This document shows, one piece after another, positions 8,451-53,547 of a DNA stretch of 53,547 nucleotides (positions within the stretch are counted from its first letter, which is position 1; the number at the start of each line of letters is the position of its first letter). The translations under genes and the position numbers were made by a program. This DNA comes from Chiloscyllium plagiosum (taxonomy: Eukaryota): the NCBI RefSeq assembly GCF_004010195.1, contig NC_057751.1, positions 16,339,108 to 16,392,654 on the forward strand, given 5' to 3'. The notes beneath the pieces are model-generated. The model had not been told where the DNA came from. It saw nothing but the letters and a program-made list of their open reading frames with translations, and did no database searches.

Positions 8451-8634
8451 GATAACATCCTCCCCCACCATCACAACTGATATCCGTATAACACGTGGCT
8501 GGGTGGCCGGGGAAAGCGAAGAGAAGGAAAGCGGTTACTGACCGCCAGGAGAAGCGCGAGAGGCACGGGTCATACCTCCAGCGGAAATGAGGAGCCCCGG
8601 AACCTGAATATCCGATAACCAGCTGGGAGGAGAC

Positions 8635-9725
8635 GGGGCAATGTGAGCATGCTCAGTGTGTTGGAGAGGCGGGGCAATGTGAGCATGCTCAGTGTGTTGG
8701 GGAGGCGGGGCAATGCGAGCATGCTCAGTGTTGGGGAGGCGGGGCAATGTGAGCATGCTCAGTGTTGGGGAGTCGGGGCAATGTGAGCATGCTCCAAGTG
8801 CAGGGAGGAAATGGGGCAATGTGAGCATGCTCAGTGTGTTGGGGAGGCGGGGCAATGTGAGCATGCTCAGTGTGTTGGGGAGGCGGGGCAATGTGAGCAT
8901 GCTCAGTGTGTTGGGGAGGCGGGGCAATGTGAGCATGCTCAGTGTGTTGGGGAGGCGGGGCAATGTGAGCATGCTCAGTGTGTTGGGGAGGCGGGGCAAT
9001 GTGAGCATGCTCAGTGTGTTGGGGAGGCGGGGCAATGTGAGCATGCTCAGTGTGTTGGAGAGGCGGGGCAATGTGAGCATGCTCAGTGTGTTGGAGAGGC
9101 GGGGCAATGTGAGCATGCTCAGTGTGTTGGAGAGGCGGGGCAATGTGAGCATGCTCAGTGTGTTGGAGAGGCGGGGCAATGTGAGCATGCTCAGTGTGTT
9201 GGAGAGGCGGGGCAATGTGAGCATGCTCAGTGTGTTGGAGAGGCGGGGCAATGTGAGCATGCTCAGTGTGTTGGAGAGGCGGGGCAATGTGAGCATGCTC
9301 AGTGTGTTGGAGAGGCGGGGCAATGTGAGCATGCTCAGTGTGTTGGAGAGGCGGGGCAATGTGAGCATGCTCAGTGTTGGGGAGTCGGGGCAATGTGAGC
9401 ATGCTCCAAGTGCAGGGAGGAAATGGGGCAATGTGAGCATGCTCAGTGTTGGGGAGTCGGGGCAATGTGAGCATGCTCCAAGTGCAGGGAGGAAATGGGG
9501 CAATGTGAGCATGCTCAGTGTTGGGGAGTCGGGGCAATGTGAGCATGCTCCAAGTGCAGGGGCAATGTGAGCATGCTCACTGTGTTGGGGAAGATGGGGC
9601 AATGTCAGCATGGTCAGTGTGCAGGAGGAGATGGGACAATGTCAGCATGGTCAGGGTGTTGGGGAGATGGGGCAATGTGAGCATGCCCAGAACAGGATGG
9701 GGAGAAGGGGCAGTGAGCATGCTCA
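8635..9725. repeat. 30-bp minisatellite (about 35 units) with internal palindrome TGAGCATGCTCA
   Basis: Unit ggggcaatgtgagcatgctcagtgtgttgg(g/a)gaggc is directly visible, with interspersed longer variants (...ccaagtgcagggaggaaat...). It explains the periodic ORFs at 8535-9611. Confidence 0.97.
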
Positions 9726-9957
9726 AAGTGGAGGAAGATGGTTTGGTCGGGAGTACTTGAGAGATGTCAGATTGAAGTTGAAATATTAACTGTGCATAAA
9801 TATTGTGAGACCTGTTATAGAGATGTAAAGCACGGAAACAGACCCTTTAACCAGATAACCTAAAAAGTCGAGTCCCATTTGCCAGCTCTTGGCCCCTATC
9901 CCTCCACACCCTTCCTATTATTATACACAGCCAGATGCCTTTTAAATGCTGTAATTA

Positions 9958-10175
9958 GGGGAGAAAGTGAGGTCTGCAGATGCTGGAGATCAAAGTTGAA
10001 ACTTTATTGCTGGAACAGCACAGCAGGTCAGGCAGCATCCAGGGAACAGGAGATTCGACGTTTCGGGCACAGGCCCTTCTTCAGGAATGAAGAAGGGCCT
10101 GTGCCCGAAACGTCGAATCTCCTGTTCCCTGGATGCTGCCTGACCTGCTGTGCTGTTCCAGCAATAAAGTTTCAA
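9958..10175. mobile_element. Palindromic Penelope-type insertion with hammerhead ribozyme, 14-bp TSD
   Basis: Perfect 88-bp inverted repeat 9996-10083/10088-10175 with a ggaa loop. Direct repeat aaatgctgtaatta at 9944-9957 and 10174-10187. Confidence 0.85.
10052..10088 (-). ncRNA. Minimal type I hammerhead ribozyme, intact core
   Basis: Minus strand AUUC-CUGAAGA-A-GGGC-CUGU-GCCC-GAAA-C-GUC-GAAU: core CUGANGA, stem II GGGC/GCCC, GAAA, GUC cleavage triplet, stem I AUUC/GAAU and a palindromic ACGU mini stem III. Confidence 0.8.
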
Positions 10176-10210
10176 ATGCTGTAATTATACCAGTCTCCAC
10201 CACTTCCTCT

Positions 10211-10434
10211 AGGAGAAAGTGAGGACTGCAGATGCTGGAGACCAGAGTTGAAAAATATGGTGCTGGAAAAACATAGCAGGCCAGGCAGCATCCGAGGTGC
10301 AGGAGAATTGACATTTCGGGCATAAGGCCTTCTTCAGGATTCCTGATGAAGGGCTTATGCCCAAAATGTCAATTCTCCTGCTCCTTGGATGCTGCCTGGC
10401 CAGCTGTGTTTTTCCAGCGCCACATTTTTCAACT
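10211..10434. mobile_element. Second palindromic Penelope-type insertion (older; hammerhead GAAA or GUC mutated), 16-bp TSD
   Basis: Imperfect inverted repeat centred at 10340 (tcagga-t-tcctga). Direct repeat ctccaccacttcctct at 10195-10210 and 10433-10448. Confidence 0.82.
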
Positions 10435-10929
10435 CCACCACTTCCTCTGGCAGCTCATTCGATACACACACCACCCTCTGCGTGAAAAAGTTGCCCCTTA
10501 CGTCACATTTTTATATTTCCCCTCTCACCTTATGCCCTCTAGTTCTGGACTCCCCCCGTCCCAGGGGAAATACATGTCTATTTATTGCTATCCATGCCCC
10601 CTCATGATTTTATAACCTCTGTAAAGTCACTCCCTCAGCCTCCGACACTCCAGGGAAAGCAGCCCCAGCCTATGCAGCCTCTCCCCGTAGCTCAAACCTT
10701 CCAACCCTGGCAACATCCTTGTCAATCTTTTCTGAACATTTTCAAGTTTCACAACATCTTTCCGATAGGAAGGAGACCAGAATTGCACGCAATATTCCAA
10801 AAGTGGCCAAATGCTGCATCTATCTGCAGCATGCCAGCTTCAATCTCAGTTCATCACATCTCTCAACTGTTTTATCAGCGGAGCAGTTTTGGGGCCTCCG
10901 TAGAAGGCTTGGACAGGTGCAAACTCCCA

Positions 10930-11390: not shown

Positions 11391-12469
11391 GGGAGGATCA
11401 TATGGTGAAGTGGAGACTCTGTCACTATCAGGTCGTATTGTTAACTCTTCTGACTGAATCAAACAGGTATTAGCTCCTAGTGTCATCTGATGAAAGTATC
11501 CAAGAGAAATCAAGCTTTCTCTTGCAGGAGTTGCATAAATAGCCCTAGTAAGGGAAAGTGAGTCAGTTTCACTAAAGGCTGGAAATGCCATGTGATACTC
11601 CCTGAGTTGTCCAGTCTGGAAAGGGTGTCTGGATCCAACCTCAGTTAGCCCTCTTTCCACTCCCCCACCCCCAATAATAAAATGTGAGGGGTAACAAGCT
11701 GAAGAGACAGAGCTGATCATGAGAGGCTTGGCTATTTTCACTGCTGGCAGGCTGGATGGATTCTGGAATGCAGGTTGGGTCTGAAATGTTGGTGTGATGT
11801 GGATTTGGCAGCAGCTCCAGAGAGATGGTGGGGGAGCAGCAGGCGGGGGGGGGGGGGGGGGGAAGGATTGCAATGCCTCCCCAGTGCGATAGCAGGAGGC
11901 AGGAATTGACTGCAGTGCTACTCCTGGGTGTTTCCAACATTTTCTCCTTCCTGCGGTTGGATTGCCATCTTCCGCAGGATGTTGCCCCTGTCTTAAGTAA
12001 AACCCAACTTTTACTTCCAGGAGGTGACAGCTTGCATTTGTATAGCGCCTTTGAAGGTTGCTTCGTCGTGTGAAATGAGGCATGAATGCAGTTGGGAAGC
12101 GGTTTGGAGTCTCAAAGTGGGTGCTGTGGGATGACTTCCTGCTAGTGGAAACTGCAAAGCAGAATGAAGGCTGCGATTCCTTAGATCGCAGAGATGTTAA
12201 GACACTGTGGTAAAGCCAATGGTAAGTGTTTGGTAATGCCAAGCTACAGCTTTAACAGCCTTTGGGGCATTTGGTGGGAAGGGCATAAATGTTCTCAAAC
12301 ATATTTCAGTCAATTCAGGCAGTTCTTATTTGCAGACTCACTCTGGGTCAGACCTTTTCCCTGGCCTGGCACCTTTTTAAGTCTGCGACAGGAAATCCCC
12401 AGAGTACTGTATGTATTTGCTGTGTCCCGTAGAGGTCACAACAGCCACAACTTCTCTGGAACAGTTATA

Positions 12470-15255: not shown

Positions 15256-15739
15256 AGGTAGGCGTCCCAGCAAGCTATGACAATATCGTTCAAATGTCAA
15301 CACGGAACGTTCTGTCTTGTGCCGATCTAGGACTTGGATTGGTTTTGTAATTGGAGTGTCTTTACCCGAACCGACACAGCCACGTTCACTCTGATGGTGT
15401 GAACGGTTAGGTTTCTGGGCTTGGGACGAATGTGGCTCCTCCTTCCACCGTTTTGACCTCTCCCCTCTCCGCAGGCTCACTCTGCGCCCGGAGCTGCTTT
15501 TCCTACCTGGCGCTTTCTGCGCCTGCGATGTCGGTAACTATATTTTTTTCCCACTGACGCCGTCCACCATCTGCACGGGAGCCATACCAGGGCAGTGTCC
15601 GGGAAACAAGCGATTGCCGAGAAAGGTGGTGTGAAAACGAGTGGCGCTCGGGCCCAGTTAACATGATGACGGCAGTGAAATCTGGCTAGAAATTTGTCTG
15701 GGGTGGGCTAAAGCGTTGCTGTGGGGTTTAAGAGCCTGG

Positions 15740-16352: not shown

Positions 16353-17095
16353 CGGGCGGCACGGTGGCTCAGTGGTTAGCACTGCTGTCTCACAGCACCA
16401 GGGTCCCAGGTTTGATTCCGGCCTCGGGTGACTGGGAGAATGTCTGTGTGGAGTTTGCACAATGTCTGCGTGGGTTTCCCTCTGGATGTGCTGGTTTCCT
16501 CCCACAGATCAAAGATGTGCAGGTCAGGGTGAATTGGCCATGCTAAATTACCCATAGTGCCCAGGGATGCGCAGGTTAGGGTGGATTGGCCGTGCTAAAT
16601 TACCCATAGTGCCCAGGGATGCGCAGGTTAGGGTGGATTGGCCGTGCTAAATTACCCATAGTGCCCAGGGATGCGCAGGTTAGGGTGGATTGGCCGTGCT
16701 AAATTACCCATAGTGCCCAGGGATGCGCAGGTTAGGGTGGATTGGCCGTGCTAAATTACCCATAGTGCCCAGGGATGCGCAGGTTAGGGTGGATTGGCCG
16801 TGCTAAATTACCCATAGTGCCCAGGGATGCGCAGGTTAGGGTGGATTGGCCGTGCTAAATTACCCATAGTGCCCAGGGATGCGCAGGTTAGGGTGGATTG
16901 GCCGTGCTAAATTACCCATAGTGCATAGTGCTCAGGGATGTGCAGGTTAGGGTGAATTGGCCATGCTAAATTACCCATAGTGTTAGCTGCATTAGTCAGA
17001 GGGAAATGGGTCTGGGTGGGTTACTCTTCGGAGGGTCGTTGTGGACCTGTTGGGCCGAAGGGCCTGTTTCCACACTGTAGGGAATCTAATCTAAA
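16353..17095 (+). mobile_element. HE1-like SINE with about 9 tandem copies of a 52-bp internal unit
   Basis: tRNA head ggcggcacggtggctcagtggttagc, then unit cagggatgcgcaggttagggtggattggccgtgctaaattacccatagtgcc with period 52 (16562 to 16614), then the SINE tail. Confidence 0.93.
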
Positions 17096-18259: not shown

Positions 18260-19030
18260 AATCACTGAATCCCTACAGTCTGTAAGCAGGCTGTTCGGCC
18301 CATCAAGTCCACACCAACCCTCCAGACGGCATCCCACCCAGACCCACTAATGCTGTAACTTTGCATTTCCCCATGGCTAACCTACACATCTCTGGACAAT
18401 ACGGGCAATTAAGTACGGCCAATCCACCCTAACCTGCACATCCCTGAGCACTATGGGTAATTTAGCACGGCCAATCCCGAATCTTCTGTTCCCTAGATGC
18501 TGCCTGACCTGCTGTGCTGTTCCAGCAATAAAGTTTCACCCATGGCTAACCTGCACATCTCTGGACAATACGGGCAATTAAGTACGGCCAATCCACCCTA
18601 ACCTACACATCCCTGAGCACTATGGGTAATTTAGCATAGCCAATCCACCCTAACCTGCACATCCTTGAGCACAATGGGCAATTTAGCACAGCCAATCCAC
18701 CCTATCCTGTGCATCCCTGAACAATATGGGTAATTTAGCACAGACCATCCACTCTAACCTGCACATCCCTGAGCACTATAGGTAATTTAGCATAGTCAAT
18801 CCACCTGAACCTGCACATCCCTGAACACTCTGGGTAATTTAGCATGGCCAATCCACTCTAACTACACATTGTTGGACTGTGGGAGGAAACCGGAGCACCC
18901 GGACGAAACCCATGCAGACATGAGGGGGGAGAATGTGCAAACTCTGCACAGACAGTTGCCCGAGGCTGGAATTGGAGCCGGGTCCCTGGCACCGCGAGGC
19001 AGCAGCGCTAGCCATTGTGACACCATTGTC
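18260..19030 (-). mobile_element. HE1-like SINE with tandem 52-bp units and a nested PLE-end fragment (~18477-18538)
   Basis: SINE head at 18950-19030. The insert gatgctgcctgacctgctgtgctgttccagcaataaagtttca matches 10132-10174. Confidence 0.87.
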
Positions 19031-20554: not shown

Positions 20555-21370
20555 CAGTACAGTGGCTCAGTGGTTAGCACTGCTGCCTCACCGCGCCAGG
20601 CCTCAGCCTCGGGCGACTGTCTGCATGGAGTTTGCACATTCCCTCCCCATATCTGCGTGAATTTCCTCTGGGTGCTGTATAGAGTTACACAGCATGGAAA
20701 CAGACCAGAGGGTAGTGTGCGAATGGAACGAGCTGCCAGAGGAAGTGGTGGAGGCTGGTGCAATTACAGCATTTAAAAGGCATCAGGATGGGTATATGAG
20801 TAGGAAAGGTTAATAGGCATATGGGCCAAGTGCTGGCAAATGGAACTAGATCAGTTTAGGTTGGCATGGACAAGTTCCTCCCACAATCCAAAGCTGTGCA
20901 GGTTAGGGTGGATTGGCCGTGCTAAATTACCCCATAGTGCTCAGTGATGTGCAGGTTAGGGTGGATTGGCCATGCTAAATTACCCATAGAGCTCAGGGAT
21001 GTGCAGGTTACGGTGGATTGGCCATGCTAAATTATCCATAATGTTTAGGATGTGCAGGTTAGGGTAGATTGGCCGTGCTAAATTACCCAATCCACCCTAA
21101 CCTGCATATCCTAAACACTATGGATAATTTAGCATGGCAAATCCACCCTAACCTGCACATCCCAGAGCTCGATGGGTAATTTAGCATGGCCAATCCACCG
21201 TCACCTGCACATCTTTGGACCATGGGAGGAAACCAGAGCACCCGGAGAAAACCCACGCAGACACGGGGAGTGTGCAAACTCCACACCGACAGGCGCCTGA
21301 AGGTGGAATCGAACCCGGGCCCCTGGCGCCGTGAGGCAGCGGTGCTGACCACTGAGCCCACCGTGCTGGC
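20555..21370. mobile_element. SINE/CR1 cluster, including tandem SINE units that switch strand at ~21088
   Basis: Plus-strand SINE head (20555-20670), CR1 piece (20700-20875), plus-strand 52-bp units (20890-21088), then minus-strand units and SINE head (21089-21370). Confidence 0.85.
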
Positions 21371-25869: not shown

Positions 25870-28029
25870 GTAATTAACCAACAGATCAATATTGGACGTT
25901 AAAGATTAACTGCGCTCTCGGAGGGAGGGGGATACCTGAGGCAGCAATCAGACCCCCCGCTTTGGGGCAACGGGCCCAGCACCGTGTCCAATCCCACGCG
26001 GGCTGGGCGAAAACACCCCTCTCTGATCGCAGGACGCTAGCACTGAACACAGAGTGAGTCCAGAGGTCAGGGAGAGGCAGGGTTCCAGATTCCCAGAGGG
26101 GTGGTTCACCAGAGACAGCGCTAAAGCTGCGGGCCATAGCACGTGGATCAGGGACAGGAGACAACAGCAGAGAGAAAACCTCCGAGAGGTCAAAAAGGCA
26201 TCTGGCACGCTTCACTTCATTGGCTGGTGCACTGAGTCTCGGGGCTGGGAGGTCATGTTGCAGCTGCACAGGACATTGGTTAAGCCGCGTTTGGAATATT
26301 GTGCGCAATTCTGGGGTCTCCCAGCTACAGGAAAGATGTTGTTAAACATGAAAGGGTTCGGAAAAGATTGACAAGGATGTTGGCGGATTATCAAGCAGGT
26401 GTCAAAGCAGTTTTGTTCCCATAGTTTCAGCATGGCTAATTGTTTTCAGTTCCTGGATAAATTTGTCCTTGTCTTTAATAGCTTATTCCAGACAGAGCTA
26501 TTGCTGCTACTTTTCACATGTCACAGTTCGCATGGCCAATTCACCCTCACCTGCACATTTTTGGACTGTGGGAGGAAACCAGAGCACCCGGAGGAAGCCC
26601 ACGCAGACACAGGGAGAATGTGCAAACTCCCACACAGACAGTCACACGAGGCTGGAATTGAACCCAGGTCTCTGGCACTGTGAGGCAGCAGTGCTAACCA
26701 CTGTGCCACCCATTATAGGTTGAATAGGCTGGGGCTGTTTCCCTGTAGTGTCAGAGGCTGAGGGGTGACCTTATAGAGGTTTATAAAATCATGAGAGGGC
26801 ATGGATAGGGTAAATAGGTCTTTACGCTGGGGTGGGGGAATTCATAATTAGAGGTTTAAGGTGTGAGGGTAAAGACTTACAAGAGACCTAAGGGGCAACT
26901 TTTTCACACAGAGGGTGGTACGTGTATGGAATGAGCTGCCAGAGGAAGTGGTGGAGGCTGGTACAATTACAGCATACAAAAGGCATCTGGATGGGGACAT
27001 GGATAGGTAGGGTGTGGAGGGATAAGGGACAAATGCTGGCAAATGGTACTAGATAAATTTAGGATATCTGGGTCGGCATGGACGAGTTGGGCCGAAGGGT
27101 CTGTTTCCGTGCTCTTATGACTCTGTTACTTAGCAGGTCTGCACCTGAAGACAGCAGTCAGCGTCCGAAAGTGTGGACGCTGGAAAAGCACAGCAGGTCA
27201 GGGGCAGCATCCGAGGAGCAGGAGAATCAACGGTTCGGGCATAAGCCCTTCATCAGGCTTGCAAACATTCTCACAGCTCGTCTTTTCCAAGACCACTCGA
27301 GGGTGGGTGCGATGTGTTCGACTTCAGGACTTCAACAATTGTTCATGGATTGAACAAAGCAGCGAATGATGAACTGTGACATGTGAAAAGTAGCAGCAAT
27401 AGCTCTGTCTGGAATAAGCTATTAAAGACAAGGACAAATTTATCCAGGAACTGAAAACAATTAGCCATGCTGAAACTATGGGAACAAAACTGCTTTGACA
27501 CCTGCTTGATAATCCGCCAACATCCTTGTCAATCTTTTCCGAAGCCTTTCATGTTTAACAACATCTTTCCTGTAGCTGGGAGACCCCAGAATTGCGCACA
27601 ATATTCCAAACGCGGCTTAACCAATGTCCTGTACAGCTGTAACATGACCTCCCAGCCCCGAGACTCAATGCACCAGCCAATGAAGTGAAGCGTGCCAAAT
27701 GCCTTTTTGACCTCTCGGAGGTTTTCTCTCTGCTGTTGTCTCCTGTCCCTGATCCACGTGCTATGGCCCGCAGCTTTAGCGCCGTCTCTGGTGAACCACC
27801 CCTCTGGGAATCTGGAACCCTGCCTCTCCCTGACCTCTGGACTCACTCTGTGTTCAGTGCTAGCGTCCTGCGATCAGAGAGGGGTGTTTTCGCCCAGCCC
27901 GCGTGGGATTGGACACGGTGCTGGGCCCGTTGCCCCAAAGCGGGGGTCTGATTGGTGCCTCAGGTATCCCCCTCCCTCCGAGAGCGCAGTTAATCTTTAA
28001 CATCCAATATTGATCTGTTGGTTAATTAC
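25870..28029. repeat. ~660-bp inverted duplication (25870-26529 and 27371-28029) with an ~840-bp spacer
   Basis: Mirror ORFs 26054-26371(+)/27529-27846(-) and 26212-26433(-)/27467-27688(+) are near-identical. Ends are gtaattaac/gttaattac and tcacagttc/gaactgtga. Confidence 0.95.
26530..27257. mobile_element. Spacer repeats: SINE (-, 26530-26710), CR1 3' end (+, 26715-27125), PLE-end fragment with degenerate hammerhead (-, 27165-27257)
   Basis: Family landmarks as in the other copies. The minus strand reads cctgatgaagggcttatgcccgaaccgttg. Confidence 0.85.
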
Positions 28030-30057: not shown

Positions 30058-31265
30058 ACGGGTGCACAGTGGCTCGCACTGCTGCCTCACAGCGCCAGGC
30101 CGGGTTCGATCCCGCCCTCAGGTGACGGTCTGTGTGTGGAGTTTGCACATCCTCTCTGTGCCTGCCTGAGTTTTCTCTGGTTTCCTCCCACAATCCACAG
30201 ATATGCAGGTTAGGGTGGATTGGCCATGCTAAATTACCCATAGTGTTCAGGGATGTGCAGGTTAGGGTGGATTGGCCATGCTAAATTGCCCATAGTGTTC
30301 AGGGATGTGCATGTTAGGGTGGATTGGCNNNNNNNNNNNNNNNNNNNNNNNNNNNNNNNNNNNNNNNNNNNNNNNNNNNNNNNNNNNNNNNNNNNNNNNN
30401 NNNNNNNNNNNNNNNNNNNNNNNNNNNNNNNNNNNNNNNNNNNNNNNNNNNNNNNNNNNNNNNNNNNNNNNNNNNNNNNNNNNNNNNNNNNNNNNNTTGG
30501 CCATGCTAAATTACCCATAGTGTTCAGGGATGTGCATGTTAGGGTGGATTGCCCATGCTAAATTGCCCATGCTAAATTGCCCATAGTGTTCAGGGATGTG
30601 CAGGTTAGGGTGGATTGGCCGTGTTAAATTGTCCCACAGTGGCCAGGGATGTGCAGGATAGGGTGAAGTGGCCGTGCTAAATTGCCCATAGTGCTCAGGG
30701 ATGTGCACGTTAGGGTGGATTGGCCGTGCTAAATTACCCATAGTGCATAGGGATTTTTTAGATTAGATTAGATTACTTACAGTGTGGAAACAGGCCCTTC
30801 GGCCCAACAGACCTGGGTTCAATTCCCGCATCCCGTGTCTGCGTGGGTTTCCTCCGGGTGCTCCGGTTTTCTCCCACAGTCCAAAGATGTGCAGGTTAGG
30901 GTGGATTGGCCGTGTTAAATTGCGCATAGTGTCCAGGAACGAGCAGGCTGGATGGGGGTTAGCCGTGGGAATTACCACGTTACAGGGATAGGGTAAGGGG
31001 GTGGAATTTGTTGGGATGCTCTTCAGAGGGTCGTGTGAGGCAGCAGTGCTAACCACTGTGCCATCGTGCCACCCACAAATGTGCAGGTTAGGGTGGATTG
31101 GCCGTGTTAAATTGCCCATAGTGTCCAGGAACAAGCAGGCTGGATGGGGGTTAGCCGTGGGAATTACCACGTTACAGGGATAGGGTAAGGGGGTGGAATT
31201 TGTTGGGATGCTCTTCAGAGGGTCGGTGTACACTCAAAGGGCCGAATGGCCTGTTTCCACATTGT
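30058..31265 (+). mobile_element. Rearranged HE1-like SINE cluster with a tandem 52-bp array (spanning a gap) and a ~145-bp direct duplication
   Basis: SINE head at 30058, tandem units 30200-30745, and duplicated segments 30887-31033 and 31079-31223. Confidence 0.85.
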
Positions 31266-53274: not shown

Positions 53275-53547
53275 AGGAGAAAGTGAGGGCTGCAGATGCT
53301 GGAGATCAGAGCTGAAAATGTATTGCTGGAAAAGCGCAGCAGGTCAGGCAGCATCCAAGGAACAGGAGAATCGACGTTTCAGGCATAAGCCCTTCTTCAG
53401 GAATGAGGAAAGTGTGTCCAGCAGGCTAAGATAAAAGGTAGGGAGGAGGGACTTGGGGGAGGGGCGTTGGAAATGCGATAGGTGGAAGACAGGCCGCCTA
53501 CTTGCGGAATGTTTCAGAGAACACCTCTGGGACACCCGGACCAACCA
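53275..53547. mobile_element. Penelope-like element: inverted terminal segment with hammerhead (-, 53368-53404) joined to plus-strand GIY-YIG coding sequence (53489 to window end)
   Basis: Minus strand AUUC-CUGAAGA-A-GGGC-UUAU-GCCU-GAAAC-GUC. The plus strand from 53489 reads TGRLLAECFREHLWDTRTN, resembling the PLE endonuclease G(E/Q)TGR.L..R..EH motif. Confidence 0.78.

Follow-up and report, generated by a model that had tools for sequence, protein, structure and literature searches.

A perfect fold-back with a hammerhead ribozyme motif at its centre might be a mobile ribozyme-bearing element in its own right, or it might be a by-product of the insertion of some other element. The question is raised by positions 9944-10187 of the window (the whole 53,547-nucleotide stretch of Chiloscyllium plagiosum DNA analysed here), where such an insert, bounded by a target-site duplication (TSD), interrupts a decayed LINE.

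Architecture of the insert and its surroundings

The features of the locus are listed below. In the element numbering used throughout, the A of ATTCC, at 10088, is +1; CUGA runs from +5 and the predicted cut falls after +32.

9850..10900, minus strand: host repeat, a decayed LINE ORF2 C-terminal region interrupted by both stubs (repeat families D9, D10, D13 and D19, and translation)
9944..9957, plus strand: left TSD, 14 bp, equal to 10174-10187
9958..9995, minus strand: "tail" of a Penelope-like element (PLE), 38 nt, on the left arm only; +94 to about +131; unpaired in the fold
9996..10083, minus strand: left arm of the 88-bp inverted repeat; sense on minus; the tailed arm, reaching furthest 5'
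10053..10088, minus strand: minimal type I hammerhead motif; stem I 10085-10088 with 10053-10056, CUGAAGA 10078-10084, stem II 10065-10076, GAAA, palindromic ACGU
10084..10090, no strand: loop (10084-10087) and head-to-head junction with 3-nt overlap (TGA, 10088-10090)
10088..10175, plus strand: right arm; sense on plus; starts at +6/+7, tail-less, ends at +93
10174..10187, plus strand: right TSD, 14 bp; its first 2 nt are common to the right-arm end
10195..10448, no strand: older head-to-head stub of the same PLE family; 16-bp TSD (10195-10210 and 10433-10448), hairpin 10211-10432

The 88-bp arms, 4-nt loop and 14-bp TSD of the initial annotation all stand: the arms pair at every one of their 88 positions on either side of GGAA, and the two 14-bp flanks are identical. 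What that annotation missed is the unpaired 38-nt segment at 9958-9995, a known PLE signature (such tails are described in PMC8557442 and PMC11167929). The predicted fold of the 216-nt insert has a free energy of -188.5 kcal/mol (z -27.7; equally stable shuffles, 0 of 200). Its right arm overlaps the right TSD by 2 nt, and the 3-nt overlap at the junction makes the exact turning point ambiguous. Position 10088 is the common 5' edge of the family, presumably a transcription start; the outer end of the tail would mark a distal RT start site and +93, at the right-arm end, a proximal one.

The minus strand reads AUUC / CUGAAGA / A / GGGC-CUGU-GCCC / GAAA / CGUC / GAAU, and so contains the sequence elements of a minimal type I hammerhead: CUGANGA, GAAA, an NUH triplet, stems I and II, and palindromic positions at stem III. 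The complete motif that had been called on this strand, with predicted cleavage after 10057 and a palindromic ACGU, is accordingly present; the plus-strand copy does lack the first C of CUGA, the right arm beginning just after it. As a 44-nt monomer the motif folds weakly (stems I and II, -7.2 kcal/mol, z -0.02), and an Rfam search of the window gave no hammerhead family match at the insert. (The sole Rfam match there, mir-BART20, at 34.6 bits against a cut-off of 70, was rejected as a generic hairpin match.) In any transcript that spans the hairpin the ribozyme would be locked into an 88-bp duplex, and the window copy is therefore likely inert. Metazoan PLE minimal type I hammerheads, as presented in PMC4209133, share with the insert the core, the unpaired base before stem II, a 4-bp stem I and palindromic positions in place of stem III, and they too occur mostly as single or opposed short copies. 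They differ in having a stem II of 7-8 bp, against 4 bp here, and in a hairpin transcript the motif of the insert would be entirely base-paired to its antisense copy. Minimal hammerheads of low activity that derive from truncated PLEs, in opposed or single copies, have already been published (PMC4209133).

The older stub has its left TSD 8 bp, and its hairpin 23 bp, past the right TSD of the first insert. Its tail is on the left arm, a G directly precedes +1, and its arms differ at 9 of 95 positions. Both of its arms have the same pattern of CpG decay and other changes in common, as if copied from an already decayed template. The LINE repeat that hosts both stubs (9850-10900) we take, from its peptide, to be CR1-like. 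Just upstream of it (8626-9726) is a 36-bp minisatellite array. Elsewhere the window holds a 576-bp inverted repeat (25954-26529 and 27371-27946; 99% complementary, 841 bp apart), a plus-strand Rfam match to SNORA77 at 12332-12468 (43.8 against a gathering score of 42, with a weaker match at 15471-15564) and tRNA-related SINE-like repeats whose internal 52-bp unit has undergone tandem expansion (16431-17002, 18325-18909, 20861-21366 and 30117-31171), one of which shows an inverted junction at 21028-21133. A SINE-like repeat also contains, at 18478-18538 (plus strand), a solo stub of the same subfamily as the insert that starts at +32 beside the predicted cut, a class that is rare genome-wide. 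Further family copies are two older solo stubs (945-1020, plus; 27179-27255, minus) and a longer copy with upstream pLTR sequence (53276-53530, minus).

A terminal repeat of an abundant Penelope-like element

The window arm is identical at 128 of 129 positions to a repeat that precedes an ORF start (locus L208), and at 123 of 129 to a repeat that follows a GIY-YIG ORF (locus L139); the same terminal repeat thus flanks the ORF on both sides. Long copies extend upstream into the end of the GIY-YIG ORF, and the sequence beyond the tail, with 879 genome matches, enters an ORF start downstream. Reverse transcriptase and endonuclease domains lie in one frame at L249:1418-3367 (minus strand; RVT_1, E 2.5e-6; GIY-YIG, E 3.2e-4), both slightly below the curated Pfam cut-offs, and the L139 peptide scores 22.8 bits for GIY-YIG against a cut-off of 22.6. 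No intact full-length ORF was found among the long copies, two of which (L196, L197) carry assembly gaps; nine of the ten longer stretches were read for ORFs only through matching shorter loci. Two further PLE copies (L224, L225) have a 54-bp in-frame tandem expansion in the RT-EN linker.

A C-x4-C-x2-C linker precedes the GIY-YIG domain in the PLE frame, and C-x4-C-x2-C is, we assume, the exact spacing of the Neptune linker motif. By this motif the element appears Neptune-like. (A linker of this kind is a feature of the Neptune clade as worded in PMC8557442.)

Abundance was gauged by exact sequence patterns over the 3.56 Gb genome. There are 88,292 exact matches to a 22-mer from the arm and 21,305 to a 34-mer of the window subfamily. 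Head-to-head pairs number 971 with spacers of 0-19 nt, 11,792 with 20-45 nt and 1,527 with 46-75 nt, the spacer being 40 when both arms reach +1. (The pair patterns demand that both cores be intact and count spacers up to 75 nt, so they detect only junctions 5' of stem II; in most matches listed for the 46-75 nt class the extra length is filler or local duplication.) The near-identity to a PLE terminal repeat, together with 11,792 similar head-to-head pairs, argues that the insert is not a separate element. The PLE origin suspected in the initial annotation is supported by the 128/129 match to the terminal repeat of an RT and GIY-YIG element, and the insert is an ordinary product of a known element class: probably a record of PLE copying and not a new ribozyme element.

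The layout itself is published. The insertion unit of endonuclease-positive (EN+) PLEs consists of a pLTR, an adjoining inverted 5'-truncated copy, a one-sided tail of 30-40 bp and a TSD (PMC3846280, PMC8557442), and a tail of that length at one end only, an inverted 5'-truncated copy and partial tandems are all found in the present family. The likeness to such units (Pen2a_Av in PMC3846280; scheme in PMC8557442) takes in the head-to-head inverted terminal repeat, the tail at one end and the TSD, and also the partial tandems and an initiator-like motif in the pLTR. The stubs differ in that the repeats enclose no ORF and comprise just the first 93 and 130 nt, in that TSDs are usually 12-17 bp long, as opposed to 8-10 bp in the rotifer examples (PMC3846280), in that more than 10,000 pairs exist, and in that the published self-priming explanation misfits about half of the pairs.

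Poseidon_Ac (PAc) of the green anole (PMC11167929) likewise has a hammerhead near the pLTR-ORF junction and two internal RT starts that bound the tail; both strands are nicked and extended, and uncut RNA is the template. Its ORF starts within stem II, whereas that of the shark PLE starts downstream of the tail, and the Neptune-like linker of the shark element is unlike that of PAc. The rule of one tail per pair and the G at +1 do not figure in the part of the account in PMC11167929 on which this comparison draws. The non-LTR retrozymes of bioRxiv 10.64898/2026.07.22.740005 are, like the insert, non-coding, PLE-derived and provided with a type I hammerhead. Since they are direct tandem repeats with a ribozyme in every unit, and the insert is an inverted pair with one complete motif, classification of the insert as a non-LTR retrozyme was rejected.

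Tails, junctions and the 5' edge

The 3' ends of 102 subfamily arms (a set that includes loci first chosen as hairpins) peak at +92-95 and +129-131. Among 99 inserts placed in the subfamily frame, 26 are close head-to-head pairs, and exactly one tail is present in all 26. TSD lengths, tabulated for the head-to-head pairs, are 12-17 bp in 21; the junctions overlap by 1-4 nt in 18 cases, contain filler in 5 and are blunt in 2, one more having been mis-scored through an indel. Across subfamilies, one tail is found in 77 of 84 pairs, two in 6 and none in 1 (the set drops pairs with N or short flanks, and some of its loci were chosen as hairpins). Half of 312 unpaired arms are tailed (50%; p 5e-16 against the one-tail pairs).

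These pairs bear on an origin by fold-back, in which a strand (the first cDNA or an antisense RNA) would snap back at the ribozyme edge and be copied. The initial annotation had raised fold-back priming, and self-priming by antisense RNA has been proposed for head-to-head pLTRs (PMC3846280). The window copy is compatible with it, as are 34 of the 77 one-tailed pairs: there the arm with the tail also extends further, and its shorter partner may have been copied from it. In 39 others the tail-less arm reaches further 5' (4 are ties). Each arm then has bases that are absent from the other and neither can derive from its partner, which favours priming from both nicked strands and contradicts fold-back for about half of the pairs. 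Pairs without a tail, which should be frequent if tail-less cDNAs folded back, number 1 in 84; the short arm stops where solo copies stop, at +93 or +130; and the G before +1, described below, points to a sense, capped template. The arms of a pair do agree in subfamily type (68/97, against 23% by chance) and in rare variants (7 of 71 common to both arms, against a shuffled mean of 0.46 and maximum of 3, with 78 of 85 pairs used), as copying of one arm from the other would have it, but variants in both arms are equally expected if the two copy the same RNA; one template RNA, small subfamilies or conversion would each fit. Fold-back is on this evidence an unlikely source of the stubs. The other 64 of the 71 rare variants are private, each occurring in a single arm, which, together with the differing arms of the neighbouring stub, implies that the perfect pairing of the window copy reflects youth rather than maintenance.

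Inversion points are non-random with respect to the ribozyme, as had been anticipated: tabulated genome-wide by spacer they peak at 20-45 nt. They do cluster at the 5' edge of the ribozyme, yet the tie between turning point and ribozyme that had been proposed holds only in part, since solo copies have the same 5' edge and many tandem junctions restart at +1. The edge therefore belongs to the template RNA. Of 101 scorable subfamily arms, 56 have their 5' end at -2 to +7, 19 further upstream and 26 downstream; in a wider frame of 246 arms, 105 end at -2 to +7, 9 in the eight positions upstream and 46 beyond. The common edge is most likely the capped 5' end of the template RNA, at which the ribozyme merely begins.

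Ends at the cut site (+32-34) are found in 14 of the 246 arms, and several of these, on inspection of arms at +24 to +41, are alignment stops in decayed copies or hairpin junctions. Genome-wide, 70 matches end at +33, of which 39 are hairpin junctions at a GAAT microhomology (the filter, comparable to that used for +1, sees part of them), against 7,291 at +1 in a broader set of subfamilies; cut-site ends were accordingly rejected as a major class, and there may be a minor class of copies from cut templates. Because copies keep the whole ribozyme core and cut-site ends are rare, templates were mostly uncut. The anole element likewise uses an uncut RNA template in vitro (PMC11167929).

The templated base before +1 is C. 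Where the base there is one of the other three, it is G in 57, A in 27 and T in 16 of the first 100 listed of 17,743 matches (G 57/100 against 29% expected, p 5e-9; tallied by hand, all rows from one contig, C1). As a control, the base before +2 is G in 17, C in 46 and T in 37 of the first 100 listed of 17,497. With G barred at the next three upstream places, which removes the commonest hairpin junction, the counts before +1 become G 63, A 20 and T 17 in the first 100 listed of 7,291. Enrichment of G just before +1 is expected if RT ran off a capped RNA start. At two loci (L278, L282) a G sits between a 14-bp TSD and +1. Among 16 solo copies with a scorable TSD, the G lies outside the TSD in 2 and an extra A in 1; in the other 13 the TSD ends with the -1 base (G in 7, T in 3, A in 3), and the seven with G fit cap-driven microhomology without proving it. 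The window copy has its 3-nt overlap and no extra G. In some hairpin junctions, a C from the cap cannot be told from templated C at -1. Untemplated G at full-length L1 and SVA 5' ends has been attributed to copying of the m7G cap (PMC3287187), and those junctions resemble the stubs in having an extra G at a common 5' end and short microhomologies. They differ in enzyme class, and the "full-length" PLE product is about 100 nt long because copying starts internally.

The context of +1 matches YYANWYY, the initiator consensus, in 90 of 93 long copies, a set inflated by pyrimidine-rich upstream copies and common ancestry. A possible TATA box at -30 was judged weak: the TTAT at -30 to -32, present in 84 of the 93, makes a poor one. 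An initiator-like motif has been described in a pLTR (PMC3846280), and D. virilis Penelope is reported to have an internal promoter that includes an initiator (PMC2377424). Judged by sequence, +1 would be a capped Pol II start. RNA reads (X19; long repeat copy and locus) come from many loci and both strands, and 92-98% of them continue into unlike sequence, as passengers; in these multi-locus reads no pile of starts and no locus-specific editing is readable, and X20 gave zero reads.

It is quite improbable that the +1 edge is instead a ribozyme-related stop or cut, in which RT would halt at stem I or at a bound factor, or the RNA would be processed. The edge does coincide with the 5' strand of stem I, a D. 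virilis intron end maps to the same place (PMC4209133), and the RNA reads, being multi-locus passengers, supply no start site. On the other hand, the hammerhead is predicted to cut after +32 and not before +1, with the disparity in ends just given; RT approaches the stem from the 3' side; the monomer folds weakly; and a structural halt leaves the G that is specific to +1 unexplained.

Highly unlikely, finally, is the other origin suggested at the outset, a non-autonomous hairpin transcribed and retrotransposed whole with its junction kept: some junctions recur exactly (one in both L059 and L114, and a +2/+7 junction in 4 of 26) and deleted tandem units of 224 and 320 bp at several loci attest to non-autonomous derivatives in the family, but junctions are heterogeneous between copies (the common ones lie at microhomologies, in different loop subfamilies), unpaired arms (312, half of them tailed) stand against 84 pairs, and the arms decay independently, as the private variants and the 9/95 differences of the neighbour attest. 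A MITE-like foldback, for which a fixed junction and symmetrical termini are expected, was rejected on the same variable junctions and on asymmetric ends and variable TSDs. L059 and L114 are unlinked longer inverted inserts with the same junction (-71/-144), possibly a hairpin copied whole or a microhomology hotspot. The tandem units (320 bp at L168, L208, L214 and L130; 224 bp at L172/L173 and L175/L176) are direct tandems of internally deleted PLEs. Every unit has a hammerhead, unlinked loci show an identical deletion junction, and the units may be called retrozyme-like non-autonomous derivatives.

Proposed twin priming and the biology of Penelope-like elements

The window insert is probably a twin-primed head-to-head stub of the abundant RT and GIY-YIG PLE, its two halves joined at insertion. 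The enzyme would introduce a nick into each target strand, with a stagger of about 14 bp, and each nick would prime RT internally on uncut element RNA, one at about +93 and the other at about +130. Synthesis of either cDNA would continue up to the RNA start, probably capped, that lies immediately before the ribozyme motif; the cap would often be copied as well, and the cDNA ends would be trimmed and joined by short microhomology. The sequence-based evidence consists of identity to the PLE repeat, the TSD, two fixed 3' ends, one tail per pair, the sharp +1 edge, the extra G and the microhomology junctions; from it we infer the use of one start site per strand on one RNP, the cap, the joining and the order of the steps. 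For the green anole, the PLE protein has been found to nick both strands and extend them, starting internally at two sites that match the tail ends and without need of ribozyme cleavage (PMC11167929). Against the model, the window copy lacks the extra G, and the arm with the tail is the longer one in it; taken alone, this copy fits fold-back equally well.

A more specific scheme is plausible and can be put forward tentatively. One enzyme dimer on one capped RNA would give each nicked strand one internal start, yielding two strong-stop-like, cap-copying cDNAs that could then be joined head-to-head (hairpins), joined to the target (solo stubs) or extended by a template jump (partial tandems). 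Seven partial tandems (L167, L178, L180, L187, L200, L213 and L215) are of the kind that such a jump after run-off should produce: in each, a piece of the ORF start, differing in length between loci, abuts a unit that begins at +1 or beside it. Literature searches, whose scope excluded most subscription papers and the older Arkhipova/Evgen'ev reviews, returned nothing stating cap run-off or twin priming for PLEs.

PLEs are the closest retroelement relatives of telomerase. PMC8557442 and PMC11167929 both treat the origin of PLE inverted pLTRs and tails as an unsettled question. If true, the scheme of one dimer on one RNA would explain tail, inverted pLTR and tandem together, and would replace antisense self-priming. 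The value of the shark stubs is statistical: thousands of young copies give rules that can be tested in the existing in vitro system, namely that each pair has a single tail, that the 5' edge is fixed and bears an extra G, that templates are uncut and that neither arm is a copy of its partner.
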